Below, in pieces: positions 5,328-39,697 of a stretch of DNA of 58,707 nucleotides (the first letter of the stretch is position 1; each line of letters opens with the position of its first letter). The translations under genes and the position numbers were made by a program. A model generated the notes under the pieces. It made no database searches, had not been told where the DNA came from, and was given only the letters and a program-made list of their open reading frames with translations. Origin of the DNA: an archaeon (GTDB lineage: Archaea > EX4484-52 > B79-G9); NCBI GenBank assembly GCA_043813875.1, contig JBDRKP010000067.1:1-58707 (forward strand), given 5' to 3'.

Positions 5328-6011
5328 ATGGCATTCGAGATAAAAAGAACACCAACAGGTATTTCTGGACTGGACAAACTCATTTTAGGAGGTCTGCCGG
5401 AACCATCTGTCACGTTGATAACAGGATCCGCCGGAACAGCCAAGACAACATTTCTATTGCAATTTCTCTGGGAAGGATTAAAACAAAAAGAAAATGGCCT
5501 ATTCATCACACTGGAAGAGACCCCTGAAGAGATAAAAAGAGATGCCCTCCAATTTGGTTGGGACTTCGGAAAATACGAAAAAGACGGAAAATGCAGTATC
5601 GAATTCTTTGACCCGTTCGAACTGGGCGACATAGCAAGCCGCCTGAAAGACCTCATCGTCGTAAACAACTACAAAAGAGTCGTAATCGACTCAACATCAC
5701 TATTCGGGATGTATATAAACGACACATACAAAGTCAGGAAAAAGCTATACAAACTGGTCCAATCATTAAAGACATCTGGCTGCACAGCATTATTATCCTC
5801 CGAAATACCAGAAAAAAGCGACACATTATCACGCTTCGGCGTCGAAGAATACGTAGTAGACGGAGTAATAATCCTGTATTACACCGGCATGGAAAATGGA
5901 GTATGCCGCAGCCTTGCAATAAGAAAACTCAGACTGACAAACTACGCGAACGGAACATTCCCATTCAGGATAACCGATGAAGGAATAAAAATATTAAAAG
6001 ACGACATATAA
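5328..6011 (+). CDS. Single-domain KaiC-like RecA-superfamily ATPase
   Basis: RTPTGISGLD, variant Walker A GSAGTAKT, ITLEE, RVVIDS, SRFGVEEYVVDGVIIL, IRKLR. Confidence 0.9.
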   Translation: MAFEIKRTPTGISGLDKLILGGLPEPSVTLITGSAGTAKTTFLLQFLWEGLKQKENGLFITLEETPEEIKRDALQFGWDFGKYEKDGKCSIEFFDPFELGDIASRLKDLIVVNNYKRVVIDSTSLFGMYINDTYKVRKKLYKLVQSLKTSGCTALLSSEIPEKSDTLSRFGVEEYVVDGVIILYYTGMENGVCRSLAIRKLRLTNYANGTFPFRITDEGIKILKDDI

Positions 6012-12100: not shown

Positions 12101-14523
12101 ATATCATAATTAAAATCAACGCCCGTATCAAGCGAATAATTGCCATTGAAACCGGATACAGTACTATAATAGACAACGCCAGCGGCATCAGTCACCTCTA
12201 TAAGAACATTCGATAACGGGGGCACGATAGAAGAATACGCATCAGTAACCATGCCTTCCACATGCGTCGCACCCTTGAGATTCGCATCAATCTCTGCATC
12301 ACTCACCACAGAATAATTAGCCATCGACACATTATACCCCGGCTTATCAAACACCATAAGATAATCATTGACCTGTGAAGACACATAGAAAGAATACACA
12401 CCACTTCCATCCGTATAAGCCGTATATTTTTTTGAATCCATCCTGCTGACTAGCTCCACTTTCACGCCGTCAATATATTTATCATGCAAATTCAACAGAT
12501 CACTCACAACCCCATGCACCCTGTTCTTTCCCCGGAGAGCAAAATCACCGATATCCACAACACCAGACACAGCATATAGCTCACTATCAGGAAAATACCC
12601 CGCCAGATTAAAAGAAACATTATATTGAATCGCATCCCTGACAATCATACCGAATCTTCCAGAAGAATCAGTTACCGTGCGATATGAAACATTACCACCC
12701 GCAATAGTGACATTCACGCCAGTTAGAAGTATCGAATTATTCGTCTCATCAACCAACGTGCCATTAAGCGTTCCAAGCCCTGAAAGGAAAATATCACCAT
12801 AATCAACAGAAGAACTATAAGCTGTCGAATTGGCATAGACAGCATAACCCTCAAAAGATACCTCAATCGTATGACTCACGCCGCCTCTGACAGACATGTT
12901 GAACGACCCGGACGAATCAGTAAGCGCTTGATACATATTCGATCCGCCGCTGATAATCTTGACAAGAGCCCCGCTTATTGCGTGACTGGTATTGCTCGCG
13001 TCAATCACTCTTCCCGATACAGACGCACTGCCAGTAAGATTCACAGGCTTTATGGTAGAAGACGCCACCAGCACATCTTTGGATATGTATCCCGAAGCGC
13101 TCATCTTAAGATATGCATTGCAATTAGGCGTCCCGGCCAAGGTGCTTGGGTAATTTATGGAATAATTTCCTGACGAGTCCGTATAAGCCCCATAATAATA
13201 ACTTCCACCCCACCCGGCGCGGATTGTATTAAGATAATTCCACAACTCAATATAAGCGCCGCTGATAACCGGATCGATAAGATTATTTTCCGAATCGAAA
13301 ACATGCCCTCTCACCTCGCATGTGCCTGTCTGGTTGACATAGATATTCTTATTCGTGCCCTCAAGAATCGACTCCGAATACAGGTGCGTATGATTATACC
13401 CCAATGCAGCAATGGAAATATCATGCAAGACACCCGCATTGCTTGTAGTATTTGCAACAACCTCGATCAGGACATTGCCGCTCACGTCAGTAAAACCGGT
13501 TTTGTTAAAAGTATCAGAATAAAAAAGAGTGACATTTGCATTCGGTATGGGCCTGCTGTTCCACACATCAAGGACAGTAAAATTATAGCTTCCATATCCC
13601 TTAAGGTAAAGGCTGGTATTCAGGATAAAAGCTTCAACAGAACCGACAGTAACAGTAATATTACGGTAATTGCTGTCCCCATACATAAATCCATCCAGAC
13701 CATTGATAGAGCCATTGAATATGACAAAAAATGACCCCCACGTCGAAAGATCAATAAAATAATTACCTGCCGAATCAGTCAGACTGGAAGCGACAATATT
13801 ACCGACTGATAAATTATATACACTCACATTCATACCAGATATAGGGTCCCCGCTAAACCTTGTAACCTTTCCGGATACGTTCCTTGAGCTATCAAGAGAC
13901 ACAACGTCATTCACATTAAAGCCCTCATTCACCACACGACCCGTCAATATCTGTGATTTATATCCGCCTTTGACCAGACTGATATTATGGACCACACTAT
14001 AATCCGTATTATTAGCGATCACCTGGATAAGAACATTACCGGACGCATCAGTCATCTTAGATTCCACATCACCGGTTGACGCAAAAACAGTGATATTGAC
14101 ATCTACAAGAGGAACACCACCTATAAGATCATATACAGTAAGATTATAGCTCCCGTGATTATCAGGATAAAGGCTTGTATTGAGCGACAGGTTCTCCGCG
14201 CCGCCGAGAGTTATCGATACATTCCGATACGGATCCGCGCCATAAACAAAACCGCTCTTATTATATATGACATAATAATCCCCTGCATCCGAAAGATCAA
14301 CATAATAGGTACCATTTGCATCAGAAAGATTTGATGATATCAGCGCTCCATCAGTCAGATTATATACGCTCACATTGACCCCGTCAACAGGCGTGCCATT
14401 GAACTGTGTGATGACACCTAAAATACTCGGCGGAGCAGCATTCACAAATACGAAAAGGAAAAACAGGAATAAGAATATCAAAGAGGATTCAATATTCCGT
14501 GAAGATTTCCTTGCTGTCATCAT
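6199..14523 (-). CDS. Giant (2774 aa) cell-surface protein: carboxypeptidase-regulatory-like/Ig-like repeats, Cys-rich motif, Ser/Gly linker, TM helix, two cytoplasmic Zn ribbons
   Basis: N-terminal signal peptide. Repeated SG.V.D...I.GA.V...TD..G.Y/F...GY units and DT.PP Ig-like starts. TM segment FVSVAVIVLFAMGALMVYWFFL. CPECGG..CVWC and CPDCGG..CVWC at the C-terminus. Confidence 0.85.
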   Translation of the reverse strand: MMTARKSSRNIESSLIFLFLFFLFVFVNAAPPSILGVITQFNGTPVDGVNVSVYNLTDGALISSNLSDANGTYYVDLSDAGDYYVIYNKSGFVYGADPYRNVSITLGGAENLSLNTSLYPDNHGSYNLTVYDLIGGVPLVDVNITVFASTGDVESKMTDASGNVLIQVIANNTDYSVVHNISLVKGGYKSQILTGRVVNEGFNVNDVVSLDSSRNVSGKVTRFSGDPISGMNVSVYNLSVGNIVASSLTDSAGNYFIDLSTWGSFFVIFNGSINGLDGFMYGDSNYRNITVTVGSVEAFILNTSLYLKGYGSYNFTVLDVWNSRPIPNANVTLFYSDTFNKTGFTDVSGNVLIEVVANTTSNAGVLHDISIAALGYNHTHLYSESILEGTNKNIYVNQTGTCEVRGHVFDSENNLIDPVISGAYIELWNYLNTIRAGWGGSYYYGAYTDSSGNYSINYPSTLAGTPNCNAYLKMSASGYISKDVLVASSTIKPVNLTGSASVSGRVIDASNTSHAISGALVKIISGGSNMYQALTDSSGSFNMSVRGGVSHTIEVSFEGYAVYANSTAYSSSVDYGDIFLSGLGTLNGTLVDETNNSILLTGVNVTIAGGNVSYRTVTDSSGRFGMIVRDAIQYNVSFNLAGYFPDSELYAVSGVVDIGDFALRGKNRVHGVVSDLLNLHDKYIDGVKVELVSRMDSKKYTAYTDGSGVYSFYVSSQVNDYLMVFDKPGYNVSMANYSVVSDAEIDANLKGATHVEGMVTDAYSSIVPPLSNVLIEVTDAAGVVYYSTVSGFNGNYSLDTGVDFNYDIRVSLAGYQNKVIENLTWDQDRTGMGGTDRVQDIAMNGSVSIYVKTIDDFDNMNIDNSMVCVFYNMTSVSCLYIKSTGWGGATSFNIRGGESYRLKITRDGYIEQILPLNGGVLAGNFSDVIALEAYAELYLYDKYALNNEEIGDAHIELYTYNNKTDYNYYIDETRVNVSVVCNGLQRDDFNVTLVGVTNNYYSSLNTSSGSSIVYFRTVPVGTYILKVDGTSIGCGYYEESMIVGTGGVSYMNAYNTDTIPPVFFNLTESADPIELGSYVTVTIGAIDLQNMVDMVLIEVDGTNRTMARVLSDIYQYTWLPGAAGTEIYTIYANDTWGNINKTTANITVLDTVAPFVTLISPNGTPSYIENVTFEFNVTDLSPIQSCELWTDTGGVWKFNMTNDSVIVRSALNSITLNAIAEGSYLWNINCTDTSGNHNFSVANYSFIVDTSVPVLSIMSPENKSYNSGAIMLFNISGNKPLVGANYSLNGQPNESMFNLTMTNFYDLIFSMADGSYSVVFYGKAYNGRTGIAGPRVFTVDTVYPTAIDVSPVDPSYFVEPAVVSFEINASEPVNLTVVYWTNSTQWILTNASYVSNQNVFSPALANDSYSWNYTLCDPAGNCVSGGDFVFNVTPAPVSLIVYVNDTTGSLVGADDNGDGASVRLYNQTYTLTKNTTSSGYVVFSDLVDGYTYNISVNGTRQGYGLNGSVYGPIFGDSVTSLVVNITKLIVNVTDASFVPVGGASVTLYLSDNTTVAKNATGGNMTGVSDAGGIVIFNRALPCIDCNVTVTKFVGILVENSTRVNVVAGNSSNYAWVDPPQSMGNTFNLNFTLNSDIVPVNVTISIKDYNSTVIRWSNKTDSNGNAVIYNVPTGIYDFIVNGEDVGYGRMTYYANVVGVVIQNSGNTDVNGRAKIKVNGLLTYYVSVNANGYVQYDDLNEGIQRRGTYDDSVNSLGIKPMIRLGLGGNTTLSGYVYDMNFKQPMNLSYEPVSAATLKMYAKTSCDVIPSPTLLRYQTVTAGNGTYSLVVSPMMQENPSSYQDYCFNVSAVGLSVKYENDVDVSKNVNVGLLGDKVISGYVKVHNGSRPIFGASILLRSHQCYGGDMIYDNCEAYGGLTAADGSFSFDVNSRTGVLSYPPYTIRVIKTGYYILDNITISTLPTVNYNLSLVPAPLSFIRINVTSENNELISKNVSIKLVQNIASGGTFVIDKSDCDFYYNEYVCVVNRDNFSDYDLLVNGTAMGYDYYLESHIIPTETPVQRNVVLNITKVNITLFDESGVALSGINVTLKSLPSVTNVTVNGSVLFYKVLPGMYSLEFAGLLDYMSVFDSTIDVANIGAMNSKILYANETQFYVNISNGTAGLGNVSVGIGNLTNVTDASGEIYFLKVNYSLTGQYPVVFNRTDLYLRGYFAPDLSVDVQPGMDKDNGNNLSLVLNSTAGYGVFRVNTSVGGVNVSLWYNDTVYIDGQVSGDDGLAFLLANASVYNTSINVTAAKVGYDGVVLGPYNTSDGNITYVDVVMTAAYSNCGEGVISPVCYCGSNLYSSGYCCSGSYQVTACDGGSSGGGSSSSSSSSGLGIVIVPKGNGSVAEVYDLSLSAESYYILSISASGDSCVNVPVYVSNEGNTVLNNLNVELSGVPKFLEANYDSLLDMLYPGEERSIIVRICAIDSGVDDGDYVGMLSVFNDHVSKDLFVTLRVVHEVGVDVQSLRNRLDRLGSILDDIDVSLLTPELKVYYDLAQKNLKDAGGYIDGGDYDKAGYLLDEAEKNIQLLLEGIKVLGDVTETGVNWSFVSVAVIVLFAMGALMVYWFFLRNRTAYSKEPVLPGDLSAGAPFLRLPKIDLSNVKVPSMLLKVLGKHDVYYAHSVAKKRYIADVVEKVLELKCPECGGKIFQNRCVWCGYKFSDSLVKTRDDSFEVPLGTGSSSFSKNDAYYTHKSRRDGVGEKFVTDAFEHVVESVCPDCGGRIYKGKCVWCR

Positions 14524-24317: not shown

Positions 24318-24466
24318 CTTATTTTTAAGTGCTTAATGACCTCTATCGGCAAAGCGCATAAAATACATATATAAAATCAATCAACAGAATAACAGAATAC
24401 ACAAAATGAAAGATCAGTCAATTAAACCCCAAAAAAATATACAACACAGAATATATATCCGGACAC

Positions 24467-24481
24467 AAAAGAGTTTATATA
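24467..24481 (+). promoter_or_regulatory. BRE/TATA promoter of the nrdR-nrdD operon
   Basis: Purine-rich AAAAGAG followed by TTTATATA at 24474-24481, about 100 nt upstream of the start codon. Confidence 0.6.
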
Positions 24482-24506
24482 GATTGGAGACACATATATC
24501 AGTACA

Positions 24507-24554
24507 ACACCACATCTAGTGGTTTGGCAGGAAAATCACTACTATATATAGACG
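24507..24554. promoter_or_regulatory. Tandem NrdR boxes
   Basis: ACACCACATCTAGTGG (24507-24522) and CTACTATATATAGACG (24539-24554). Both keep the invariant C-A-AT-T-G positions of acaCwAtATaTwGtgt, with 32-bp spacing. Confidence 0.8.
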
Positions 24555-24582
24555 CCATATCATCCTTGAGGAGGGGAACCAT

Positions 24583-27039
24583 TTGAAATGTCCGTACTGT
24601 TCATCTAGTGAAACGAAGGTCTTGGATAAAAGATTCACCGAAGATCTTGAAGTGAACCGCAGAAGAAGAGAATGTATCTCATGCAACAAAAGATTCACGA
24701 CCTACGAGAGGATAGAGACACACCCATTATTGATCATCAAAAAAGACGGCTCAAGACAGGAATACGACAGGAACAAGATCCTAAAAAGCATCCTCGTATC
24801 ATGCCAGAAAAGACCCATAAGCCAGGAATCCATTGAAAGGATCGTAGACGAAATCGAAAGCGAACTGCTGCACTTGGACACCCAGGAAGTCGAGAGCAAA
24901 AAGATCGGTAACCGCGTAATGAAAAAACTCAAGACATTAGATGACATTGCATACATCAGATTCGCATCTGTCTACAGGTCCTTCAAAGACATAGAATCAT
25001 TTGAACGCGAACTGCACAAGCTGAAAGTCGTAGGAGAGACGCAGAATACAGGCTCTGACTCAACAGACATACTCTTACAGGTCACAACAACATCAGAGGG
25101 AAAAATAAGCGAATGGAACAACGAGCGCATCGTAAGCGCCCTCATAAGAGAGATCAGGATCCCGCGCGACGAAGCCATAGAGATAGCCGATGCCGTTGAA
25201 AAAAAAGTATTCTCATCCGGGATCAAGACAATATCCGTGAGCCTCATACGCGAACTTGTAGACATAGAACTATTCACCAGAGGCTACGACAAGAAACTGG
25301 AAAAACAGGGAATCATAGGGATGCCCCATTATAACTTAAAACAGCTGATATTCAACAAAAGCAACGAAAACAGCAACGTAGCTGCAAACAACCCCGAAGC
25401 AGTCAACCTGGCGATCGCAGAAAACACACTGAAGCAATACGCACTAAAAGAACTATTCTCAGAAGACATATCCTCAGCACACATGAAAGGCGCAATCCAC
25501 CTGCACGACCTCGGATACCCGATCCGCGTATATTGCAGCGCGCACAGCCTCGAATACATAAAGAAATACGGCTTGAGGCTCATCAACCTCTCAACCACGT
25601 CAGCCCCGGCCAAACACGCAGGAACACTTACAGGCCACCTGAACACATTCCTCGCATCCATGCAAGCATACTACGCAGGCGCCCTCGGGATCAGCTACGT
25701 GAACATATTCTACGCGCCATACCTTGTAGGCATGAGCTACGAGAAGATGAAACAGGAAGCACAATACCTGATCTTCTCATGCAGCCAGAACGCGTTCTCG
25801 CGCGGCGGCCAGACATTGTTTATTGACTTCAACATACACTTAGGGATTCCAGGATATCTCAAAGATGTGCCGGCTATAGGCCCTGGCGGCAAATACACAG
25901 GAAAAGTCTACGCTGACTACGAAGAGGAAGCCCAGCAATTCGCAAAAGCGCTTCTAGACGTCTGGCGGGAAGGCGACGGCGAAGGCAAGCCATTTCCTTT
26001 CCCTAAATGCGACCTTCACGTAGACAAGACAACCTTCAGCGACCCGAAACAATACGAACTCCTGAAATACGCATGCCAGATAGCCTCAGAAAACGGCTCA
26101 CCATACTTTGTCTTCGACAGGGACGAAATAAACCTCTCCATGTGCTGCCGGTTGAGGACAAAAATAGTCGACGACTACGTAATCAAACACCCGGAAAGCA
26201 TGAGATTCTGCGGCTTCCAGAACGTAAGCATAAACCTGCCCCAGGCCGCCTACAGGGCTGGAAAAGGCAACCTTGAAGGCACAATATCTGAACTGCACAA
26301 AGCAATGAAACTTGCGGTAAAAGCCCACATACAAAAAAAGAAATTCATACAGAAACTGATGAGCGTCCCGGGCGCACCCTTGTGGCAGGTAGGCCAGATC
26401 GCCCCCGACGGCAGGCCATACATCGACCTTGAGACAGCCACCTACATACTAGGCATCATAGGACTCAACGAATGCGTAAAATATATAGTTGGTCAGGAAC
26501 TGCACGAATCAGAAGAAGCATACAGGACCGGCCTGAAAATAATCTCTGCCATGTACCTCAGATGCAAGGAATTCGAAAAAGAATACAGCCTGAAATTCAC
26601 TCTCGAAGAGACGCCCGCAGAAAGCGCATCCTTAAGGCTCGCAAAAATCGACCTGAAAGAATACCCCGAAAGCAAAGACTACATACGCGGCAACAAGAAA
26701 AAAGGAGAGATATATTACACGAACAGCGTACACTTGGCACCAGACGCACCGGTCGACATCATAGAAAGAATCGAAAGGCAATCCAAATTCAACACACTGA
26801 TCGAATCAGGAGCAATAACCCACGTGTTTTTAGGCGAGCAGAAACCGGATATGGGAAGCGTATTATCTCTGATCAAAAAGACATGGGATAACACCCAATG
26901 CGCACAGATCACAATATCCCCCGAATTCACAATATGCAATGATTGCCATAAACTATCCAGAGGTTACGCAAGAGAACAGAAACCTCAAACAAAGGCCATA
27001 AAAGATATGCCAAAAAAAGAGGGGGCGGTTGTAGCATGA
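24583..27039 (+). CDS. nrdD: NrdR-NrdD fusion: NrdR repressor (Zn ribbon + ATP-cone) fused to a class III ribonucleotide reductase that lacks its glycyl-radical tail
   Basis: N-terminus MKCPYC...RRRRECISCNKRFTTYERIE, IIKKDG ATP-cone and YIRFASVYR (NrdR). Then a second cone and the NrdD core: IHLHDL, YCSAH, SRGGQ, PFPFP, MCCRL, ETPAES, YYTNS, GAITH and FTICNDC. RBS GAGGAGGGG. Confidence 0.92.
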   Translation: MKCPYCSSSETKVLDKRFTEDLEVNRRRRECISCNKRFTTYERIETHPLLIIKKDGSRQEYDRNKILKSILVSCQKRPISQESIERIVDEIESELLHLDTQEVESKKIGNRVMKKLKTLDDIAYIRFASVYRSFKDIESFERELHKLKVVGETQNTGSDSTDILLQVTTTSEGKISEWNNERIVSALIREIRIPRDEAIEIADAVEKKVFSSGIKTISVSLIRELVDIELFTRGYDKKLEKQGIIGMPHYNLKQLIFNKSNENSNVAANNPEAVNLAIAENTLKQYALKELFSEDISSAHMKGAIHLHDLGYPIRVYCSAHSLEYIKKYGLRLINLSTTSAPAKHAGTLTGHLNTFLASMQAYYAGALGISYVNIFYAPYLVGMSYEKMKQEAQYLIFSCSQNAFSRGGQTLFIDFNIHLGIPGYLKDVPAIGPGGKYTGKVYADYEEEAQQFAKALLDVWREGDGEGKPFPFPKCDLHVDKTTFSDPKQYELLKYACQIASENGSPYFVFDRDEINLSMCCRLRTKIVDDYVIKHPESMRFCGFQNVSINLPQAAYRAGKGNLEGTISELHKAMKLAVKAHIQKKKFIQKLMSVPGAPLWQVGQIAPDGRPYIDLETATYILGIIGLNECVKYIVGQELHESEEAYRTGLKIISAMYLRCKEFEKEYSLKFTLEETPAESASLRLAKIDLKEYPESKDYIRGNKKKGEIYYTNSVHLAPDAPVDIIERIERQSKFNTLIESGAITHVFLGEQKPDMGSVLSLIKKTWDNTQCAQITISPEFTICNDCHKLSRGYAREQKPQTKAIKDMPKKEGAVVA

Positions 27040-27215
27040 ACGAGACAGAAACAACAGAGACAGACATTCCGCGATGCCCGCACTGTGGAAGCACTAACGT
27101 ATACGGCATGAGCAGAGTAGTCGGGTATTATTCAAAAATCGATAATTGGAACAAGAGCAAAAAATCCGAATTCAAAGACAGGCAAAAAGGAAACTACAAG
27201 ATTTCTGAATTGTGA
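27036..27215 (+). CDS. Stand-alone NrdD C-terminal glycyl-radical domain (59 aa; absent from the supplied ORF track)
   Basis: Translated by hand: MNETETTETDIPRCPHCGSTNVYGMSRVVGYYSKIDNWNKSKKSEFKDRQKGNYKISEL. It has CxxC, the RxxGY radical motif and WNxxKxxExxDR, an ATGA overlap with the upstream stop, and a G-rich RBS. Confidence 0.9.
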   Translation: MNETETTETDIPRCPHCGSTNVYGMSRVVGYYSKIDNWNKSKKSEFKDRQKGNYKISEL

Positions 27216-27219
27216 TGAC

Positions 27220-27477
27220 ATGAAGATAAAGATATTCACAAAAGAAGACTGCCCTAACTGTCCGCCAGCCAGGGATCTCGGGAAAATACTGGAAGCCGAA
27301 GGTCTCGACGTAGAATACCACGACATATCTACGATAGACGGGCTGACAGAATCATCATACCACGGAATCATGTCAACGCCATCAGTTCTGGTCATCGGAA
27401 AAGACGGCAAAGAGAAGACAGGCTGGAGAAGCACCGTACCAGACATCAACGAAATTCGCCAGGTGCTCGGCAAATGA
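27220..27477 (+). CDS. Thioredoxin/glutaredoxin-like (NrdH-like) redoxin
   Basis: IKIFTKEDCPNCP (CxxC) and cis-Pro motif IMSTPSV, inside the RNR operon. Confidence 0.85.
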   Translation: MKIKIFTKEDCPNCPPARDLGKILEAEGLDVEYHDISTIDGLTESSYHGIMSTPSVLVIGKDGKEKTGWRSTVPDINEIRQVLGK

Positions 27478-28181
27478 TCGATGTAGACATAAGAGGGATA
27501 TTCAACACATCACTCATAGACTATCCCGGAAAGATCGTATCAACAATATTCTTCAACAGATGCAACTTCCGGTGTCCATTCTGCCATAACCCGGAACTTG
27601 CATTGGATAAAGACCAGAACAACCCGATAGATACCGAAAAAATCATAGAGCACCTCATAAAAAGAAAAAAATGGCTTGACGGCGTTTGCCTGACGGGCGG
27701 AGAGCCGACACTGCACAAAGGACTCACTGAATTTATCGAAAACATAAAAAAAGAAGGATTCCTGGTAAAACTGGACACAAACGGCACAAACCCGTCAGTC
27801 CTCAAAGCACTTATCAAAAAAAAACAGCTGGACTACATCGCGATGGACATAAAGACAAATCTGGAAGACTATGAGAATGTCGCAAAAGTCAGGGTAAACA
27901 AAAAAGACATCAAAAAGAGCATCGGACTGATTCAAAACAGCACAATAGACTACGAATTCCGCACAACCATCGTACCGCCATACTTCAACAAAGACAACCT
28001 GATCAATATATGCGAATGGCTAAAAGAATCAAGACTTTATGTACTTCAACAATTTAAAAATAATACAGCAATGATTGATATGACACTATCAGATGTGGCT
28101 CCATACCCACAGAAGACAATAATGGAATTTAAAGAAATTGCATCAAAATACTTCAAAAACTGCGAAGTACGAGGAATATAA
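27474..28181 (+). CDS. nrdG: Anaerobic RNR activating enzyme (radical SAM)
   Basis: SLIDYPG, CNFRCPFCHN, LTGGEPT, KLDTNG, YIAMDIK and YEFRTT. Confidence 0.93.
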   Translation: MIDVDIRGIFNTSLIDYPGKIVSTIFFNRCNFRCPFCHNPELALDKDQNNPIDTEKIIEHLIKRKKWLDGVCLTGGEPTLHKGLTEFIENIKKEGFLVKLDTNGTNPSVLKALIKKKQLDYIAMDIKTNLEDYENVAKVRVNKKDIKKSIGLIQNSTIDYEFRTTIVPPYFNKDNLINICEWLKESRLYVLQQFKNNTAMIDMTLSDVAPYPQKTIMEFKEIASKYFKNCEVRGI

Positions 28182-28198: not shown

Positions 28199-28393
28199 AT
28201 GCCATATAAGATCACTATAGACGAAGAAGAATGCATCGGATGCGGTACATGCGCTGCACTATGCGACGAAAATTTCAAGATGGGCGACGACGGCAAAGCA
28301 AAAGTAAAAAACAAGACCGTGAACGAGCTAGGCTGCAACGAAGAAGCTAAAAACAGCTGCCCGGTATCATGCATCCACATCGACAAAGCATAG
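28199..28393 (+). CDS. Monocluster ferredoxin
   Basis: CIGCGTC...CPVSCI in a 64-aa acidic protein with RBS GAGGAGG. Confidence 0.9.
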   Translation: MPYKITIDEEECIGCGTCAALCDENFKMGDDGKAKVKNKTVNELGCNEEAKNSCPVSCIHIDKA

Positions 28394-29628: not shown

Positions 29629-31314
29629 GTGATAATCACGCCCTTAAGAGGACTATTGAGAAGAAAATACGATCAATCAAAACAGGAAAAAAGGATCATC
29701 GATGAAGAGATAGCCCGATTCACAGTCAGAGACAGTGAAAAAATCATAGTTCTCCCTGAAACAAAAGGAACAGAGAACACAGATGTAGTCTACCCGCTAA
29801 TACCCCCCTTCGCTTACGCCAGAATCACATGGAACGAAGAAGAACAAGCACTGATTTACCGTGTAGACCAGCCAGAACTGGACGAAGACGAAAAAGATCT
29901 GCTTCACCTCATAAGCAAAGGATTGACAAAAACACTGGAAACAAACATCAGCATACTAAGAGAAAGAGAAACACTGCTTAAATACATCCAACAAAAAACA
30001 AAGGAAATAATTGAAGAATACGGCATAACACTTAAACCCGGCCAATACACAAGGCTTATGTACTACATCTACATCAATTTCGTAGGCCTCAACGAACTTG
30101 AACCATTGATGCATGACAATTATATCGAAGACATAGGCTGTGACGGAACAAGTGTAGCACTCTATGTCACGCACAAAAAATACGGCAATATCAAAACAAA
30201 CATCTCCTTCAACACCAAAGAAAGATTGCAGGAATTCGTCACAAAACTCGCCGAAAGATGCGGCAAATACATATCCTACGCAGAACCGATTCTGGATGGC
30301 TCCCTGCCAGACGGCTCAAGAATAAACTCCACGCTGGCATCCGACGTGACAACAAGAGGCCCCACATTTTCTATCCGGAAATTCAGAAAAGTACCATACA
30401 GCGTAATCGACCTGATACGGCTAAAAACAGCTACGATTGACGAATTCGCATACCTCTGGTACGTCATAGAACACAAAGTGAACATATTAATCTGTGGCGG
30501 TACAGGAGCTGGAAAGACGTCTTTCCTGAACGCAATAGTCTCATTCATACCGCCCGAAGACAAGATAATTTCAATTGAAGACACACAGGAACTGAACCTG
30601 CCTCACGAAAACTGGATTCCGTGCATATCAAGGCTCTCTTTCGGCACCACCAATGCAAGAGGAGAAAAATACGGAGAAGTCACAATGTTCAGCTTACTAA
30701 AAGAATCATTCAGGCAAAACCCGGATTATGTTATCGTAGGCGAAGTAAGAGGTACAGAAGCATCAGTCCTTTTTCAGGGCATGGCATCAGGTCATCCGTC
30801 TTTCGGAACAATCCACGGAGGCTCAGTAGACGACATCATCAAAAGAATGCAGACACCCCCGATAAGCCTCTCACCGAGCCTTCTGGAGACACTGGACATT
30901 GTACTCGTCATAAGCCGCGCATTGCAATACGGAAAAAGCGCAAGAAGACTAAAAAGCATCTGCGAGATCGAAAGCATCGACTCAGACTCCGGAAGAGCAC
31001 GAATGATCAAAAGCTATCAATGGAGCCCGGGTGACGACAAACACGAAAAGCACAAGAGCTATGTCCTTGAAAAAATAAGCGCCGACTATGGTATCCCTTT
31101 TAATCAGATAATGGAAGATATAGAAGACAGAAGAGCCCTGCTCGAATGGCTATACCGGAAAAAAATAACCTATTTCAAAGATGTTTCCCTCTACATCGCA
31201 AAATATTACAAAAATAAAAAAGGCATCATGGAAATACTAAAAAAAGACATCCCTGCAAACGACATAAAAGAAGATGTACAATCTAGATCTTCAACACTAT
31301 GCCCTCTTCAGTAA
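29629..31314 (+). CDS. Type IV pilus/archaellum-type assembly ATPase (FlaI/PilB family)
   Basis: IEDIGCDG, LPDGSRIN, FSIRKF, Walker A GGTGAGKT, SIEDTQEL, RQNPDYVIVGEVRG and GH...TIH. Confidence 0.93.
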   Translation: MIITPLRGLLRRKYDQSKQEKRIIDEEIARFTVRDSEKIIVLPETKGTENTDVVYPLIPPFAYARITWNEEEQALIYRVDQPELDEDEKDLLHLISKGLTKTLETNISILRERETLLKYIQQKTKEIIEEYGITLKPGQYTRLMYYIYINFVGLNELEPLMHDNYIEDIGCDGTSVALYVTHKKYGNIKTNISFNTKERLQEFVTKLAERCGKYISYAEPILDGSLPDGSRINSTLASDVTTRGPTFSIRKFRKVPYSVIDLIRLKTATIDEFAYLWYVIEHKVNILICGGTGAGKTSFLNAIVSFIPPEDKIISIEDTQELNLPHENWIPCISRLSFGTTNARGEKYGEVTMFSLLKESFRQNPDYVIVGEVRGTEASVLFQGMASGHPSFGTIHGGSVDDIIKRMQTPPISLSPSLLETLDIVLVISRALQYGKSARRLKSICEIESIDSDSGRARMIKSYQWSPGDDKHEKHKSYVLEKISADYGIPFNQIMEDIEDRRALLEWLYRKKITYFKDVSLYIAKYYKNKKGIMEILKKDIPANDIKEDVQSRSSTLCPLQ

Positions 31315-31960
31315 TCTCATATTCCACCCATATTCTTTGATGGCGTGTATCCTTCATCTTCGATATCCTCAAAAATCTCTTATCTTCTTCAAACTTCATC
31401 TCAATCAAGCCATCAGCAAGAAAATTCAGAGTAGAAACGATTCTGATATCATGTACCCCCTCCTCCAGAGTAAGAAATAAAGTTGAATCAGTTGAAGTAG
31501 ACTTAGCAATAAACTCTTGCAAAAAAAGAGGCACCATCTGCGGATCAGAATACAAAAACAACGTAGATATAGAATCAGCAACCAATCGCTTATCTTTTTT
31601 GCCGATATCACGCAACAGATCCGTAAAGACCATATTCAATTGATTAAGATTAGACAAGCCATCGACCGCATACATGGAATTACAACCAGACCCGATCCTC
31701 CACGAAAAGCAATCAAGAAAAGTCAACTTCCCATCGCTATTCCAACCGAAACGCTTCATGGATTGCCTTATAGACTCCGGCCGGCTATCAAAAGTAACGA
31801 AAATGCACTCCTCATTTTCCCTTATGCCTTCATTCAAAATCTGCTCACAAAGGATGCTCTTTCCAACACCAGGCGGACCAATGAGTAAAATAGCCGCATT
31901 TTTCGGAAACCCTCCCTCAATCAGCTTATCCAGATTTTTGATACCCGACTGTTCGCGCAT
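31283..31960 (-). CDS. KaiC-like (RAD55-family) ATPase
   Basis: SGIKNLD..GGFP, Walker A GPPGVGKS, RLVADSIS, LADGLIEM and LRISKMK. Confidence 0.88.
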   Translation of the reverse strand: MREQSGIKNLDKLIEGGFPKNAAILLIGPPGVGKSILCEQILNEGIRENEECIFVTFDSRPESIRQSMKRFGWNSDGKLTFLDCFSWRIGSGCNSMYAVDGLSNLNQLNMVFTDLLRDIGKKDKRLVADSISTLFLYSDPQMVPLFLQEFIAKSTSTDSTLFLTLEEGVHDIRIVSTLNFLADGLIEMKFEEDKRFLRISKMKDTRHQRIWVEYEITEEGIVLKI

Positions 31961-31978
31961 AAGTTCACCATCACCACA

Positions 31979-32455
31979 TTAGCACACACGCGCCACAAAT
32001 TCGCAGTAATCGTCCCCCAGCCCCCCGCAAAGAGTCTCCCTGACAACCACCCTTTTTTTGACTTTCGACTCGAGGAACCCCGCAATAATCCCTGCCTCAA
32101 AATAACATATCTGCGCTTCCACCGGATGCATATCCCTGCATGCACTGCAATCTTCTAGCCGGAATACATACCTCGTACCAGAATCACCGATCAGCTTCAA
32201 TTTACCGATACCGGACCTCATAAAAAAATCCTCTAGAAACGCACACGCCTTCTCAACACTATCCGCATCACACCTATCGGACAAAGAATTCTTGGCAAAC
32301 TTCTTACCCGCCATATAAAGTGCCGAAAAATAACCCACACTCAACCATTCCAACGAATATACCATCAACCGTTTTGAAACATTAGGACATAGTTCTTTAT
32401 CTTTTAAAAACACATCAAGCTCCCGATCAATTGCTTCCTTCCAAGAATCCTCCAT
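31979..32455 (-). CDS. V4R-domain protein
   Basis: LYMAGKKFA, GIGKL, DCSAC, ICYFEAGIIAGFLE and RETLCGGLGDDYCEF. Confidence 0.88.
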   Translation of the reverse strand: MEDSWKEAIDRELDVFLKDKELCPNVSKRLMVYSLEWLSVGYFSALYMAGKKFAKNSLSDRCDADSVEKACAFLEDFFMRSGIGKLKLIGDSGTRYVFRLEDCSACRDMHPVEAQICYFEAGIIAGFLESKVKKRVVVRETLCGGLGDDYCEFVARVC

Positions 32456-32482
32456 ATTCTACCACCATCTTTAACTTCAATC

Positions 32483-32755
32483 TCATACTTTATGCGTAAC
32501 ATATAACTGATAAAATCCAACCAACAATAAAACAGAACCCAATACAGAAGCAACCAGATAATTGCCACTACCCATCCCGGCATTTTCCAGCGCCTTCATC
32601 AATTCACTGCATGCAAAAACAGCAAATGCTACAGAGATAACAATCCAGTATCTCTCAATATTAGGAAACAGAGACGAATACCGGTATATAAACCACGAGA
32701 TTAATGCAAACATCATCGCTGTAATAAGATCACTCATAAAGAGCATACTATACAT
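32483..32755 (-). CDS. Small 3-TM membrane protein
   Basis: 90 aa with three hydrophobic helices and IERYW motif. RBS GAGGA, overlapping the upstream gene. Confidence 0.7.
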   Translation of the reverse strand: MYSMLFMSDLITAMMFALISWFIYRYSSLFPNIERYWIVISVAFAVFACSELMKALENAGMGSGNYLVASVLGSVLLLVGFYQLYVTHKV

Positions 32756-33041
32756 TCCTCGTCTCCTCCTCGATTTTATACACAGCATACATCGCAAGCG
32801 CCGGCCCAATCGGCTGGATCAGCGCATAAAATATATCGAAAAACTCCAGGTTAAAATATGAATTCATCATCGGCAACAGAGCATCAGAAACCCAATATAT
32901 AGACACACCCCAAAAGAAAAACTTCCAGTAATCAGGAATATCCCTATACTCAAAGAACCGGTTAAGGAACTTATTAAAGAAATACAAGGATACAAAACCA
33001 ATCACTACATAAAAGTACACTAACAAAGTCATAATCAACAT
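32748..33041 (-). CDS. Small 3-TM membrane protein (apparent paralog of the downstream one)
   Basis: About 97 aa with three hydrophobic helices and IPDYW motif. Start trimmed from the ORF track to avoid overlap with the divergent kaiC-like gene. Confidence 0.7.
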   Translation of the reverse strand: MLIMTLLVYFYVVIGFVSLYFFNKFLNRFFEYRDIPDYWKFFFWGVSIYWVSDALLPMMNSYFNLEFFDIFYALIQPIGPALAMYAVYKIEEETRNV

Positions 33042-33120
33042 ATACCATATTTGTTTACAAACATATATATATGAAAATTGACCATATATCCATACAGATT
33101 TAAGAAAGTGAGGAATTAGC

Positions 33121-33816
33121 TTGATAGAAAGAATAAAAACAAACATAACAGGTCTTGACGACATACTTAACGGCGGCATTCCTGAAGGAAATGAAATACT
33201 GATAGCAGGGCCAACCGGCTCTGGCAAAACCATACTCTCATTAGAATTCCTCTACCGTGGCGCACTCAATGGTGAAAGAGGCATATACATATCCTTCGAA
33301 GAAGACGAAAAAGCAATTGTAAGGAATGTAACTGAGATAGGCATGGATCTGGCAGAACAGATAGAAAACGATATGATTCGGGTTATCCGATATGATCCCT
33401 ACAGATTCGAAAACCTATCAGACCTGCTAACGATGAACATCAAAGAGACCGGAGCAAAAAGAATCGTAATAGACTCAATAACCGCGATAAATCTCTACAT
33501 CCAGGAAGAAAAAGACATAAGAAAGACACTTGTCGACATACAGTCAATATTAAGAAACAACAACTGCACCGCATTTCTTATCTCCGAGATACCTGCAGAA
33601 AACAGCAAAATGATAAGCAGATTCGGCGTCGAAGAATTCGTAGCAGACGGGATCATCATCCTTTATTACACACACATAAACTCCGAATACTCAAGATCAA
33701 TATCAGTATGGAAAATGAGGGGCTCAACACACTCGCGAAAAATACACCCTTTCAAGATATCAAAAGAAGGCATAATCATCTATCCGCGAGAAGAAGCCTT
33801 GATAAAACTCAATTAG
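33121..33816 (+). CDS. KaiC-like RecA-superfamily ATPase
   Basis: ITGLDDILNGGIP, GPTGSGKT, ISFEE, RIVIDS, SRFGVEEFVADGII and KMRGSTHS. Confidence 0.9.
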   Translation: MIERIKTNITGLDDILNGGIPEGNEILIAGPTGSGKTILSLEFLYRGALNGERGIYISFEEDEKAIVRNVTEIGMDLAEQIENDMIRVIRYDPYRFENLSDLLTMNIKETGAKRIVIDSITAINLYIQEEKDIRKTLVDIQSILRNNNCTAFLISEIPAENSKMISRFGVEEFVADGIIILYYTHINSEYSRSISVWKMRGSTHSRKIHPFKISKEGIIIYPREEALIKLN

Positions 33817-33904
33817 CCAGTGATAAAATGCTAAAAAAAAAAAGAATCAGAATGAATACGATACCTCATTAAACGAACTGAAATCATTTTTAACTTCAAA
33901 GGGC

Positions 33905-34876
33905 TTGATTGAAGAACAAAAAAAACAGCATATAAATCGTTCTTCATATACTTCAAAAATATCAGTCATGACTGAATCCCTGCTAAATACAAAATACCTG
34001 AAAAACTACAAAGCTTTCTCAAATGTGCTTTTTACAGGCCTCAGCAAGAAGATGGACATATATTTCAATCCACTGAAAAATGCATTGGAATCATCCAATA
34101 TAGATATACTCCCAAACACATACCTGACCCTATCTTTATCTACCTCATTTCTTGCAGCACTAGGTTCCGTCATCATGATACTATTCGAAACGACATTCAT
34201 ATCAATAGGTCCAATTGCCCTTGCATCAGGTCTCATTTTTATTCCCGTGGTTTCCTTCCTATTAGTATTTTCTATATTCTACATGTATCCATTCCAGAAA
34301 CTCCATCAAAATGCAACAAATATCAACACTAATCTTCCATTTGCTATCAACCACATGGCAGCCATCGCATCTGCGGGAGTTCCACCCCTGAAGTGTTTTG
34401 AAATGCTGGCTGAATTCGGGGAATACGGAGGCGTATCAGATGAATCAAGAAACATCGTACGCAGAGTAAATGGATTTGGTGAAGACATAACACAATCAAT
34501 AAAATACGTTGCACAAAGAACACCGTCAAGGGACTTCAAAGATTTGCTCTATGGGATGCTATCGGTCATTGAAAGCGGAGGCAACATGAAAGAATACCTC
34601 AACGAAATGGCACAACTGGCACTATTTAATTATAAACTATCAAGAAAAAAATACATCAACTCATTGTCTACTTATGCAGACATCTATACAGCAATCTTGA
34701 TAGCAGCGCCACTATTTTTAGTATCCATCCTATCGGTCATGAACCTGGTACCAGGAACAACAGGAGTCGCAGGAATGTCAATAATCTATTTTATGAGCAT
34801 GGGAATATATGTTGTCATACCCACACTAAACATAGCATTCATATTGTTTATTACCTACACACAACCGGAAATCTGA
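33905..34876 (+). CDS. Type IV pilus membrane platform protein (TadC/FlaJ, GspF domain); true start may be ATG 33828 across an A11 tract
   Basis: LPFAINHMAAIASAG, EYGGVS.E, FGEDI...RTPS and ESGG motifs with several TM helices. Confidence 0.87.
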   Translation: MIEEQKKQHINRSSYTSKISVMTESLLNTKYLKNYKAFSNVLFTGLSKKMDIYFNPLKNALESSNIDILPNTYLTLSLSTSFLAALGSVIMILFETTFISIGPIALASGLIFIPVVSFLLVFSIFYMYPFQKLHQNATNINTNLPFAINHMAAIASAGVPPLKCFEMLAEFGEYGGVSDESRNIVRRVNGFGEDITQSIKYVAQRTPSRDFKDLLYGMLSVIESGGNMKEYLNEMAQLALFNYKLSRKKYINSLSTYADIYTAILIAAPLFLVSILSVMNLVPGTTGVAGMSIIYFMSMGIYVVIPTLNIAFILFITYTQPEI

Positions 34877-34881
34877 TCTAC

Positions 34882-35787
34882 ATGTCACTCAAAGAAACAT
34901 ATCACAACTACAAAGAACTAATCACCATAATCCTATCAATATTAGCCGGAAGTGCAATAGTCATCATCAATATACTAATCATTGGCCCGGAAAGTGACTT
35001 CTTGTTCACAATCACAAACATCATTGCAGTTGGAACAGTATCCCTGCCGATAGCAATAGTATACTACAACAAATATAAGCTGATAAAAGCTTACGAAGAC
35101 ATATATCCTGACTTCTTAAGAACAATCGTTGAAGGATTGAGTGGCGGGATGTCACTTCCGCTTGCGATAAACTACGCCTCCCAGAGCAACTATGGTATCC
35201 TGACACCAGCCGTAAAAAAACTCGTCGCCCAGATATCATGGGGTGTCTGTTTTGAAGATGCCCTCCGAAACTTTGCAGACACCATTCAAAGTCCGGTCGT
35301 TACAAGATCAGTATCAACAATAATCGAATGCCACAGATCTGGCGGTAACATTGGAGACGTCTTAAACTCAGTAAGCGGCTCACTCATTGAAATAGAAAAG
35401 ATAAGACGGGAGCGCTCGATGATGATATCAAGCCAGATGATGACAGGATACATCATATTCTTCGTCTTCATAGTAGTAATGATTGGCATAAGAGAATTTT
35501 TCCTCTGCGGCTTCAGTTTTCCTGCTTCAAGCGTGGGCGGCGAAACATTCTTTCAAGAAAACCAGCCCGAAGGATATACTTCAGAGAAGTACGGAACAAT
35601 GTTTACACACCTTGCGATAATTCAGGGGTTTTTTGCAGGTTTGGTTATCGGGAAACTATCAGAAGGGCGCCTAAGCGCAGGCACGAAACACGCAATAATC
35701 CTCGCATTGACAGGCTATACGTCATTAGTTCTCGCACATGAAATCATCAAATCCATGAATTTATTCGCAGGCAGCGGCACATGCTAA
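34882..35787 (+). CDS. Second type IV pilus membrane platform protein (GspF domain)
   Basis: PDFLR...GMSL..AI...YG.LT, ISWG..FEDAL, SGGNIGDVL and IQGFFAGLVIGKLSEG. Confidence 0.88.
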   Translation: MSLKETYHNYKELITIILSILAGSAIVIINILIIGPESDFLFTITNIIAVGTVSLPIAIVYYNKYKLIKAYEDIYPDFLRTIVEGLSGGMSLPLAINYASQSNYGILTPAVKKLVAQISWGVCFEDALRNFADTIQSPVVTRSVSTIIECHRSGGNIGDVLNSVSGSLIEIEKIRRERSMMISSQMMTGYIIFFVFIVVMIGIREFFLCGFSFPASSVGGETFFQENQPEGYTSEKYGTMFTHLAIIQGFFAGLVIGKLSEGRLSAGTKHAIILALTGYTSLVLAHEIIKSMNLFAGSGTC

Positions 35788-38193: not shown

Positions 38194-38823
38194 TCAAGGC
38201 CGTACCCTTTTGATATTATAATAAGTCACATCATTCTCTTCATCAACCACAGCCAAAAGAGCCCTGGCCCTTATGTTTTGGCTCAGCCTGACATACCGCG
38301 ACCATTCCTGGTAACTCATCGTATGATTCTCAGGAACCGCATGAACATTATATTTCGTATGGTCCTTCGATTCTTTTGCGCCCTCCTTGTAAGGATTGAC
38401 ACCCCGGTCATACACACGGAAATGCGTACCGAACTTGAACCCGGACTTCACGATGAACCCCCGGTTTCTTAGATCGCGATACACACTATACTTCTGAGGA
38501 AACTCTTTATCGATAGACACGCACAGATTATAGAATGAATTGACATCCATCTTCTTATTACGCGCATTGCCCGCATTTATCTCTAGGAAACCTCTTTCCA
38601 AAAGCAACATTGACTCCTCAAGACTGAGCTGGAGATATGCCTTCTTTTCCACTTCAACCCACTTGCCAAAATACTTCTCCTGAAATATGGAATCTGCCTG
38701 CGCCTTATTCCACACTACTACCTTATTCTCAAGAAAGTCCCCGAATGCAATCGGCTCCTTCCGATGTTCAATAGAATTATTATCCGCATAATCTTCCGAT
38801 TCAATCTCATTTTTCTTTGCCAT
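38194..38823 (-). CDS. endA: tRNA-intron (splicing) endonuclease, catalytic unit
   Basis: LSLEE, VYRDLRNRGFIVKSGFKFGTHFRVY, catalytic H in DHTKY and AVVDEENDVTYY. Confidence 0.92.
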   Translation of the reverse strand: MAKKNEIESEDYADNNSIEHRKEPIAFGDFLENKVVVWNKAQADSIFQEKYFGKWVEVEKKAYLQLSLEESMLLLERGFLEINAGNARNKKMDVNSFYNLCVSIDKEFPQKYSVYRDLRNRGFIVKSGFKFGTHFRVYDRGVNPYKEGAKESKDHTKYNVHAVPENHTMSYQEWSRYVRLSQNIRARALLAVVDEENDVTYYNIKRVRP

Positions 38824-38906
38824 GACTATCACACTCAAATTAAATATATTGTCCTTTAAGAACATATAAAACATAATCTCTTTTAAATAAATATTGATTC
38901 CAGGCA

Positions 38907-39554
38907 TTATAAATCAAGTTTAGTCACATCCTCAGCAATCATATCCACCCCGAGTTCTTCTGCATCCTTTCTCTTCAACACGCCAGTCAGAACGACAGCG
39001 CATTCACAGCCCGCGTTCTTCGCCATAAGAACATCATTCTTCGTATCCCCCACATAGACTATTTTCTCGGCAGGGATATTGAAATGCCTTGAAGCAAGAA
39101 GGATCATATCCGGGAATGGCTTCCCATTTTCCACATCATCAGCGCCAATCAGCAAGCTGAAATACTTCAAAAGACCTAACCTAGACACCCACTTCTCAAG
39201 AACGTGATGGCTATTCCCAGAAGCAATCGCAAGCACATGATTCCTCTTCTTTAAGTCTAAAAGAAACTCAGAAATCCCCTCGATTTCCTCAAAACAATCA
39301 GAAAAACGATCATCCTCAAAGCCTTCCTTCACCTTTTCGCCGATACGCCTCTCAATCTCAGGAGTCCTGTAATCCTCTTCAAGCAGTTTCGGCACAATCA
39401 CCTTATAATGCTTTCCGAAATGATGGGTGATCTCCTCATCAGAAGCATTTAGAGGTACATCCGCATTACTGAAAGCGTTTCTTATATTCCGGACATGGCA
39501 ATGATTCGATTTTACAAGTACGCCGTCAAAATCAAACAAAATCAGCTTTCTCAT
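38907..39554 (-). CDS. HAD-superfamily hydrolase (phosphoglycolate phosphatase-like)
   Basis: LILFDFDGVL, KPFP and YVGDTKNDV.MAKNAG. Start trimmed to 39554 because the longer ORF overlaps the tRNA. Confidence 0.88.
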   Translation of the reverse strand: MRKLILFDFDGVLVKSNHCHVRNIRNAFSNADVPLNASDEEITHHFGKHYKVIVPKLLEEDYRTPEIERRIGEKVKEGFEDDRFSDCFEEIEGISEFLLDLKKRNHVLAIASGNSHHVLEKWVSRLGLLKYFSLLIGADDVENGKPFPDMILLASRHFNIPAEKIVYVGDTKNDVLMAKNAGCECAVVLTGVLKRKDAEELGVDMIAEDVTKLDL

Positions 39555-39591: not shown

Positions 39592-39697
39592 TGGTGGGAC
39601 GAGCGTGACTTGAACACGCGACAACTAGATGTCCAAAACGTCAAAATCAAGACGTTATTTCTTCAGTCTAGCGCTCTTCCAGCTGAGCTACCGTCCC
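39592..39697 (-). tRNA. tRNA-Phe(GAA) with a 30-nt intron at 37/38 (intron 39631-39660) and encoded CCA
   Basis: GGGACGG/TCGTCCC acceptor stem, GCTC/GAGC D-stem, CTAGA/TCTAG anticodon stem, GCGTG-TTCAAGT-CACGC T-arm and ACCA end. The intron forms a BHB-like motif. Confidence 0.95.

Follow-up and report, generated by a model that had tools for sequence, protein, structure and literature searches.

The 58,707-nucleotide archaeal contig JBDRKP010000067.1, which in its entirety we call the window, carries at positions 24583-27039 of its plus strand a single open reading frame (ORF) in which a complete NrdR repressor module runs on into the catalytic barrel of NrdD, the class III ribonucleotide reductase (RNR). 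The NrdR-NrdD architecture is real and widespread and is apparently uncharacterized. We consider it likely that this gene encodes a repressor-enzyme fusion that binds its own operator, and that the reductase to which it belongs is made in two pieces. The initial annotation of this DNA had read the chain as a one-polypeptide repressor-enzyme, and every computational test that we ran on the sequence favors that reading: the NrdR module is complete, its contact residues are conserved, and NrdR boxes lie at its own promoter.

One chain carrying NrdR and NrdD

The ORF encodes 818 amino acids (aa) from a TTG start to its sole stop, and the related locus L001 also has a TTG start behind a Shine-Dalgarno-like AGGAGGG. 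On this one chain, Pfam places Zn_ribbon_NrdR (PF22811) at residues 1-42, ATP-cone (PF03477) at residues 50-136, and NRDD (PF13597; 400 bits, profile positions 1-519 of 562) at residues 262-794; a search for these three profiles together had been proposed in the initial annotation, and all three matched. The NCBIfam model for NrdR (TIGR00244) aligns over its whole length (positions 1-147 of 147) with a score of 175.4 bits, above the cut-off of 124.65, in agreement with the earlier claim that a complete NrdR forms the N terminus, and the model for NrdD (TIGR02487) matches residues 261-789 (374.9 bits against a cut-off of 326.35). Unlike free-standing NrdR proteins, which have about 140-220 residues, the module is embedded here at the N terminus of an 818-aa enzyme chain. 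The junction was also claimed to hold neither a stop nor a start, which was borne out: the chain stays in one frame, and a scan of the ORF for in-frame ATG, GTG, and TTG codons found none between residues 113 and 219, which leaves the NrdD part without a separate start at the junction. A separately started NrdD made from an internal start codon is ruled out on the same ground.

The ATP-cone that precedes the barrel had been called degenerate, and the data agree with this description, given that its PF03477 match (29.2 bits) barely exceeds the 25.8-bit cut-off and that the K-R-D-G (KRDG-type) hairpin is missing from the sequence. Five cysteines of the chain (C318, C521, C522, C785, and C788) are invariant across the 60 homologues that we aligned. 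In the AlphaFold2 model (mean predicted local distance difference test score, or pLDDT, of 76.8; predicted template modeling score, or pTM, of 0.65), the NrdR module is folded, the second cone is moderately confident, and the barrel is confident; the pLDDT falls below 50 over residues 133-177, and the tail (residues 796-818) is disordered. The linker of about 45 residues is therefore predicted to be disordered and flexible. We considered that the fusion could be cut in this linker to give an ordinary NrdR and an ordinary NrdD, the fusion then serving as a device for 1:1 co-expression. The predicted disorder fits such a cut, and in the bacterial loci L003 and L004 the two genes are adjacent, which would make co-expression the ancestral logic. 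However, we saw no protease site or self-cleaving element in the linker, which is partly conserved (D159 in at least 90%, and T161 in all, of 60 sequences) and matches the N terminus of unfused NrdD, and a fusion that is always undone offers no obvious gain over the operon form. We therefore regard cleavage as quite unlikely.

The junction itself points to how an intact fusion may have arisen. In L003 (Ratteibacteria; 5466-5474) and L004 (Omnitrophota; 5460-5468), nrdD starts one codon after the nrdR stop and in the same frame. Unfused relatives of the barrel begin with M..KV.K...(S)TD..LLV, and the fusion has KLKVVGE...DSTDILLQV after its NrdR module. Loss of the stop between two adjacent genes would explain the junction. 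At L003 and L004, a single substitution would yield a fusion. In a FastTree phylogeny of NrdR modules (193 rows, 150 columns), the fused forms cluster, with 4 label changes compared to 60.7 after shuffling and none of 500 shuffles as low. The well-supported branches require one origin only; given that 86 of the 187 branches have support under 80, the tree cannot decide between one origin and several.

A search with residues 1-260 against proteins of 449-1432 aa gave 305 matches (clusters at 90% identity), and 116 of the 120 listed among these carry PF22811, PF03477, and PF13597. The named sources of fused proteins are Heimdallarchaeota, other Asgard archaea, Bathyarchaeia, Micrarchaeia, Aenigmatarchaeota, Woesearchaeota, and Nanoarchaeia. 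The NrdR module alone matched 398 proteins of at least 260 aa; NRDD is present on 96 of the 120 listed, among which no other recurring RNR partner was found. A scan of genome contigs returned at least 598 matched stretches, from which 80 loci were kept. Most of these are stand-alone bacterial nrdR genes, and the true fusions among the 80 are L001 (labeled as a Nanohalarchaeota metagenome-assembled genome; 87% identical) and L002 (labeled Woesearchaeota) only, in the DNA of which the fused ORF is unbroken. The genome survey suggested in the initial annotation thus found the architecture in hundreds of clusters and the ORF continuous in two further stretches of DNA, and the fusion is not an assembly artifact. 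The possible novelty raised there stood in part. The fusion is not unique, being common in archaeal metagenome genomes, but neither an NrdR-NrdD fusion nor a split class III RNR turned up in the searchable full text, which excludes supplements and does not cover a 2026 Microbiology and Molecular Biology Reviews article on NrdR that may mention a fusion. Database pipelines label the fused proteins "anaerobic ribonucleoside-triphosphate reductase" in some cases and "transcriptional regulator NrdR" in others, and those of JGI sometimes use both names.

NrdR is described as "absent" from archaea in a 2025 preprint and as "rare" elsewhere, and a 2026 paper finds it in 22% of archaeal genomes (PMC13584703). 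Fused forms may account for much of the latter figure. Many NrdR-NrdD and NrdD homologues of 1100-1700 aa contain inteins or homing-endonuclease domains (PF14528 and PF14890; for example, P0039, P0057, P0065, and P0116); the fused copy in the window has neither.

DNA contacts and a candidate operator

Residues 1-147 of the fused protein align without gaps to solved Escherichia coli-type NrdR chains (E = 1.6e-35), end to end with 9fvr and 7p37. In Streptomyces coelicolor NrdR, R12, R26-29, and R37 hold the DNA backbone and D15 and R17 read bases, while K50, R51, E56, and K62 bind the nucleotide and F124, V127, and Y128 sense its 2'-OH (PMC9110341). The module in the window has C3, C6, C31, C34, D15, R17, R26-29, and R37, and its K53, K54, K65, F127, V130, and Y131 align with S. 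coelicolor K50, R51, K62, F124, V127, and Y128. It therefore shares the Zn-ribbon, the RRRR stretch, the D15/R17 pair, and residues of the two-site ATP-cone with the stand-alone NrdR of S. coelicolor and E. coli (PDB 7P37 and 9FVR). The Zn-ribbon cysteines, the RRRR stretch, and the specificity residues are conserved in 104-113 of 113 fused modules, a range that carries less weight at R27-29, since the regular expression that selected the 113 modules demanded three basic residues before the second Cys pair and so partly built in their invariance. R17 and R37 are each found in 113 of 113 modules and D15 in 104, with E in the other nine. The nucleotide contacts are similarly retained (K53 in 113, K65 in 112, and Y131 in 104 of the 113). 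Judged by these residues, the NrdR module looks competent.

An NrdR box is recognized by six highly conserved positions (C4, A6, A8, T9, T11, and G13), and paired boxes are 15-16 bp apart (PMC13584703). The initial annotation had placed boxes within 24500-24560, and a canonical pair is indeed present at 24507-24554. This is the only pair in the window in which all 12 positions agree, and Markov-simulated windows contain 0.02 such pairs each; likewise, dinucleotide shuffles of the 265-nt intergenic region never reached 12/12. The box core pattern by itself occurs 12 times in the window compared to 18.6 expected occurrences, and two of the 12 are 32 bp apart.

The window is archaeal chromosomal DNA that encodes PCNA, RFC, MCM, TBP, topoisomerase VI, eIF-1A, and L15e and holds no other RNR gene. 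We take positions 24470-24483 to be a B recognition element (BRE) and TATA box, with transcription presumably starting about 23 nt downstream. These 14 bases are the same in L001, where the adjoining sequence has diverged. Box 1 starts 23 nt past the TATA box in the window and 25 nt past a TTTATATA in L002. We infer that the boxes lie approximately at an archaeal transcription start, just downstream of the TATA box. Bacterial NrdR sites lie over -35 and -10 elements; in an archaeal host, the boxes would instead cover the predicted start of a TATA-type promoter. When the window and L001 are aligned, AAAGAGTTTATATA and box 1 are retained, as are the key positions alone of box 2, the spacer having diverged, and positions 5 and 12 of box 2 show complementary changes between the two loci. 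No RNA family was found in the leader with Rfam. A scan for sigma-70 promoters and terminators gave counts close to those of shuffled sequence (8 sites compared to 6.6, and 6 compared to 5.6), with a bacterial model that is inapplicable to an archaeon. A separate 24-nt element, ATATACAACACAGAATATATATCC (24437-24460), is also identical in L001 in spite of diverged intergenic surroundings. It sits between a divergent RFC-like gene and the nrd promoter and is not a full NrdR box (4/6 key positions by eye, no scan having been run).

Our operator survey covered three fused loci and four loci with adjacent nrdR and nrdD genes (Table 1).

Table 1. Best NrdR box pairs upstream of fused and adjacent nrdR-nrdD genes
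Locus	Arrangement	Conserved positions and placement	Shuffles reaching the score
Window	fused	12/12, 16-bp spacer, 29 nt before start	0/3000
L001	fused	12/12, 16-bp spacer, 29 nt before start	1/3000
L002	fused	12/12, 16-bp spacer, 246 nt upstream; also 12/12, 25-bp spacer, 51 nt upstream	0/3000 (15-16-bp spacers only)
L007	adjacent genes	12/12	0/3000
L004	adjacent genes	11/12	11/3000
L003	adjacent genes	10/12	68/3000
L060	adjacent genes	6+4 of 12	score of 0 in this test, whose minimum is 5 per box

A pair of 16-bp boxes with a 16-bp spacer at an RNR promoter is also what is seen with stand-alone NrdR, and NrdR "often" controls its own gene (PMC9110341). The gene order and the position of the boxes upstream of nrdR are the same as in nrdR-RNR operons such as S. 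coelicolor nrdRJ and the nrdR-nrdD pairs of L003, L004, L007, and L060, an arrangement in which the repressor controls itself and the reductase together. In those operons, however, a stop codon parts the two proteins, which form one chain in the window. Autorepression by the fused protein is supported at the sequence level by the box pair at its own promoter and by its near-invariant DNA-contact residues. We also considered that the NrdR module may no longer bind DNA and may have become an extra nucleotide-sensing or oligomerizing domain, with the boxes being read by a separate NrdR encoded elsewhere. Stand-alone NrdR genes do occur in related archaea (Woesearchaeota loci L005, L009, L010, L022, and L058), ATP-cones control RNR activity through oligomers (PMC11226230), and a replacement sensor would be useful to an enzyme whose own cone is degenerate. 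Nonetheless, we judge this unlikely: R17, D15, and R37, which contact only DNA and have no role in nucleotide sensing, are retained at the frequencies given above, each of the three fused loci examined has the boxes next to its fused gene, and no second nrdR is present in the window.

A reductase divided between two chains

The large ORF stops 30 residues past its first Cys pair (C785 and C788), and the two Cys pairs that make up the Zn site at the NrdD C terminus fall on either side of this stop. Its TGA overlaps the ATG of a 59-aa ORF (ATGA), which has GAGGGGG about 10 nt upstream and matches PF13597 at positions 517-561 (of 562) and TIGR02487 at positions 541-580. The two ORFs together tile Prevotella copri NrdD (8P23), the large ORF covering residues 521-687 with its residues 616-788 and the small ORF covering residues 691-735. 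Both the Cys pair and the radical motif of the small ORF are invariant in 44 aligned copies. The earlier reading that the chain runs on into NrdD was therefore correct for the barrel and not for a complete reductase: judged from these profile and motif matches, the large polypeptide alone is not a whole reductase, and the glycyl-radical part is a separate 59-aa gene product. Given that the large chain has no radical domain, the small chain would be an obligatory subunit and not a spare. The Cys pairs are invariant in 60 of 60 large chains and 44 of 44 small chains, and a single Zn(Cys)4 site is probably formed jointly by both chains. In the AlphaFold2 model of a natural continuous homologue (P0008), residues 830-848, between the Cys pairs, are the only low-confidence stretch of the C terminus.

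The split recurs well beyond the window. Stand-alone small ORFs of 48-97 aa with the motif CxxC...RVVGY...WN..K form 105 clusters, and all 105 candidates are significant. Among the 120 homologues listed from the search with residues 1-260, 76 end no more than 70 residues past the first Cys pair without a radical motif, the radical domain is present in 19, and 25 could not be placed. In a set of 150 diverse NrdD representatives, 97 are continuous and 17 unfused ones look split in the same way (counts that ignore kinship), so the split is enriched in the fused clade and not confined to it. In each of two Asgard-group genomes (one labeled Heimdallarchaeota), consecutive NCBI accessions pair the large and the small gene on one contig. 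The ATGA overlap is found again in L001; L002 has its small gene 330 nt downstream. A programmed frameshift that would join the two NrdD ORFs was considered and rejected: no slippery heptamer is present at 27030-27040, and the distance in L002 excludes a simple frameshift. Five unfused NrdDs (P0228, P0229, P0230, P0235, and P0242) keep both Cys pairs of the Zn site and have no RVxGY at their end; NrdD may be split at a second position in these cases, or the radical may be arranged differently.

A missed stop or frameshift could in principle have joined nrdR to nrdD, and the early stop could mark a decaying gene. The window comes from a single assembly, and the glycyl-radical domain is normally on the NrdD chain itself, as in the 97 continuous representatives. 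We nevertheless consider an artifact or pseudogene highly improbable, given that the fusion occurs in hundreds of independent clusters and at two independent genome loci, that the same stop position is found in the 76 of 120 listed homologues, and that the small ORFs of the 105 clusters are intact, with their own ATG and conserved motifs. The spacing in L002 and the lack of a slippery site, described above, argue in the same direction.

The two-piece enzyme has partial parallels. Like known class III NrdD, it has the barrel, the finger-loop cysteines, the C-terminal Zn site with RVxGY, and an adjacent NrdG; unlike known NrdD, it has a degenerate cone on the barrel side, a separate 59-aa radical chain, and a Zn site divided across chains. 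RNR catalytic chains split into two genes have been described for class II NrdJa/NrdJb and class I Aeh1 NrdA (PMC3267527 and PMC9669993). GrcA (YfiD) is a small separate protein that carries a glycyl-radical loop for pyruvate formate-lyase, and a 2026 review of glycyl-radical enzymes gives such spare-part proteins as known for formate lyases only (PMC13450708). The 59-aa ORF resembles GrcA in being a small stand-alone protein with a radical loop (RVVGY). GrcA, however, backs up an enzyme that has its own radical domain, and the large chain here has none. If confirmed, this would be the first glycyl-radical enzyme beyond the formate lyases whose radical site lies on a small protein of its own, as well as the first split class III RNR, and it would bear on the repair of oxygen damage and on how activases recognize their targets.

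Working model and gene neighborhood

In the model that we favor, a rise in dATP relative to ATP would lead dATP to displace ATP at the outer nucleotide site of the NrdR cone. Two reductase dimers would then come together as their NrdR modules pair via cones and Zn-ribbons into a DNA-binding tetramer, which would occupy the two boxes over the predicted transcription start, block initiation, and shut off its own operon; at high ATP, the modules would form oligomers unable to bind DNA. Because repressor and enzyme would be the same molecule, enzyme abundance and product level would feed back together. The 59-aa chain would contribute the second Cys pair, together with the glycine on which NrdG generates the radical; the joint Zn(Cys)4 site and a glycine loop inserted into the barrel would probably hold the chains together. 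The initial annotation had proposed that allosteric control and repression act through the same nucleotide pool. This idea survives in altered form: NrdD's own cone is degenerate, and allosteric control would probably pass through the NrdR cone. PMC12051234 summarizes the action of dATP on P. copri NrdD as a loosening of the glycyl-radical domain. We speculate that in the split enzyme this effect could mean release of the small chain.

Several points weigh against this model. In the nucleotide site, two S. coelicolor residues differ in the window (E56 is Q59, and K69 is V72). Promoter and transcription start were assigned from the general archaeal consensus and are predictions, and fused-locus DNA was examined at only three loci. 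The boxes could be bound by a stand-alone NrdR elsewhere, and the window, which lacks one, spans only 58.7 kb. Four NrdR modules, each with a 670-aa cargo, must fit into the DNA-binding tetramer, and the AlphaFold2 model, at its pTM, is unreliable on domain arrangement. DNA binding, repression, a radical on the small chain, and enzyme activity are predictions made from sequence, and nucleotide dependence, the oligomer, two-chain assembly, and control of activity by the NrdR cone are proposed on the same footing.

A more far-reaching version, which we put forward tentatively and think rather less probable than not, is that one NrdR cone sets both transcription and activity, that the 59-aa radical subunit is exchangeable and is attached through the shared Zn(Cys)4 site, and that the fusion is the usual form of NrdR in Asgard archaea, DPANN, and Bathyarchaeia. 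If this were true, radical modules damaged by O2 could be swapped, or released on dATP, without remaking a 94-kDa enzyme.

Enzymes that double as regulators are known as trigger enzymes. In PutA, BirA, and NadR, one polypeptide is both an enzyme and a DNA-binding repressor of genes of its own pathway, with a pathway metabolite as the signal. The fusion described here differs from these in that its DNA-binding fold and chemistry are unrelated to theirs and its sensor would be an ATP-cone reading dATP/ATP. The NrdR/ATP-cone is a textbook mobile domain that controls enzyme expression and enzyme activity on separate proteins; here it is found on one chain in many archaeal lineages. The fusion therefore offers a natural test system for whether one nucleotide sensor can drive both outputs and for the way in which a repressor of bacterial type works at an archaeal TATA promoter.

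The features of the locus are collected in Table 2. The fused gene belongs to a real archaeal operon of nrdR-nrdD (large), nrdD (small), a redoxin gene, and nrdG, perhaps with a ferredoxin gene, which is possibly the last of the operon. The redoxin is the probable reductant of the enzyme, and the ferredoxin could supply electrons to the activase or to the redoxin. Homologues of NrdG are present in L001, L002, L004, L007, and L060.

Table 2. Positions of the nrd promoter, fused gene, and downstream genes in the window
Feature	Position	Strand	Remarks
Candidate archaeal promoter: purine-rich BRE-like AAAGAG, then TATA box TTTATATA (24476-24483)	24470..24483	+	14 bases identical in L001
NrdR box 1, ACACCACATCTAGTGG	24507..24522	+	6/6 conserved positions; conserved in L001
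NrdR box 2, CTACTATATATAGACG	24539..24554	+	6/6 conserved positions; 16 bp past box 1
Shine-Dalgarno-like GGAGGGG	24570..24576	+	read from sequence; 6 nt ahead of TTG start
NrdR module (residues 1-147)	24583..25023	+	Zn-ribbon 1-42 and NrdR-type ATP-cone 50-136
Linker (about residues 148-170, KVVGETQNTGSDSTD...)	25024..25092	+	low pLDDT; no in-frame start codon
Second, degenerate ATP-cone (about residues 171-238)	25093..25296	+	weak PF03477 match
NrdD catalytic barrel (residues 262-794)	25366..26964	+	PF13597 and TIGR02487; ends with first Cys pair C785/C788 (26935-26946)
59-aa glycyl-radical subunit	27036..27215	+	second Cys pair C14/C17 (27075-27086); RVVGY with G30 (27123-27125)
85-aa thioredoxin/glutaredoxin-like protein (CPNCP)	27220..27477	+	Pfam Thioredoxin_3, Glutaredoxin; homologue in same place in L001-L004
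NrdG activase (radical S-adenosylmethionine)	27474..28181	+	TIGR02495 NrdG2, 209.1 bits against cut-off of 131.15
64-aa single-cluster 4Fe-4S ferredoxin	28199..28393	+	Pfam Fer4_13, Fer4_15; 18 nt past nrdG

Elsewhere in the window, Rfam detects a tRNA at 39595-39697 on the minus strand (54 bits), a span of 103 nt that suggests an intron; ARAGORN reports no tRNA in the window. The tRNA overlaps the 5' end of a predicted haloacid dehalogenase (HAD)-type hydrolase ORF, and a gene for a tRNA-intron endonuclease (38197-38907) is found about 0.7 kb away. A 2774-aa ORF at 6202-14523 on the minus strand contains repeated carboxypeptidase-regulatory-like domains and probably encodes a giant surface protein. 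Three genes for KaiC-like ATPases are found at 5328-6008, 31286-31960, and 33121-33813, two of which flank or sit within a cluster (29629-35784) that encodes a type II/IV secretion ATPase and two T2SSF-type membrane proteins and is probably a pilus or archaellum-like system.

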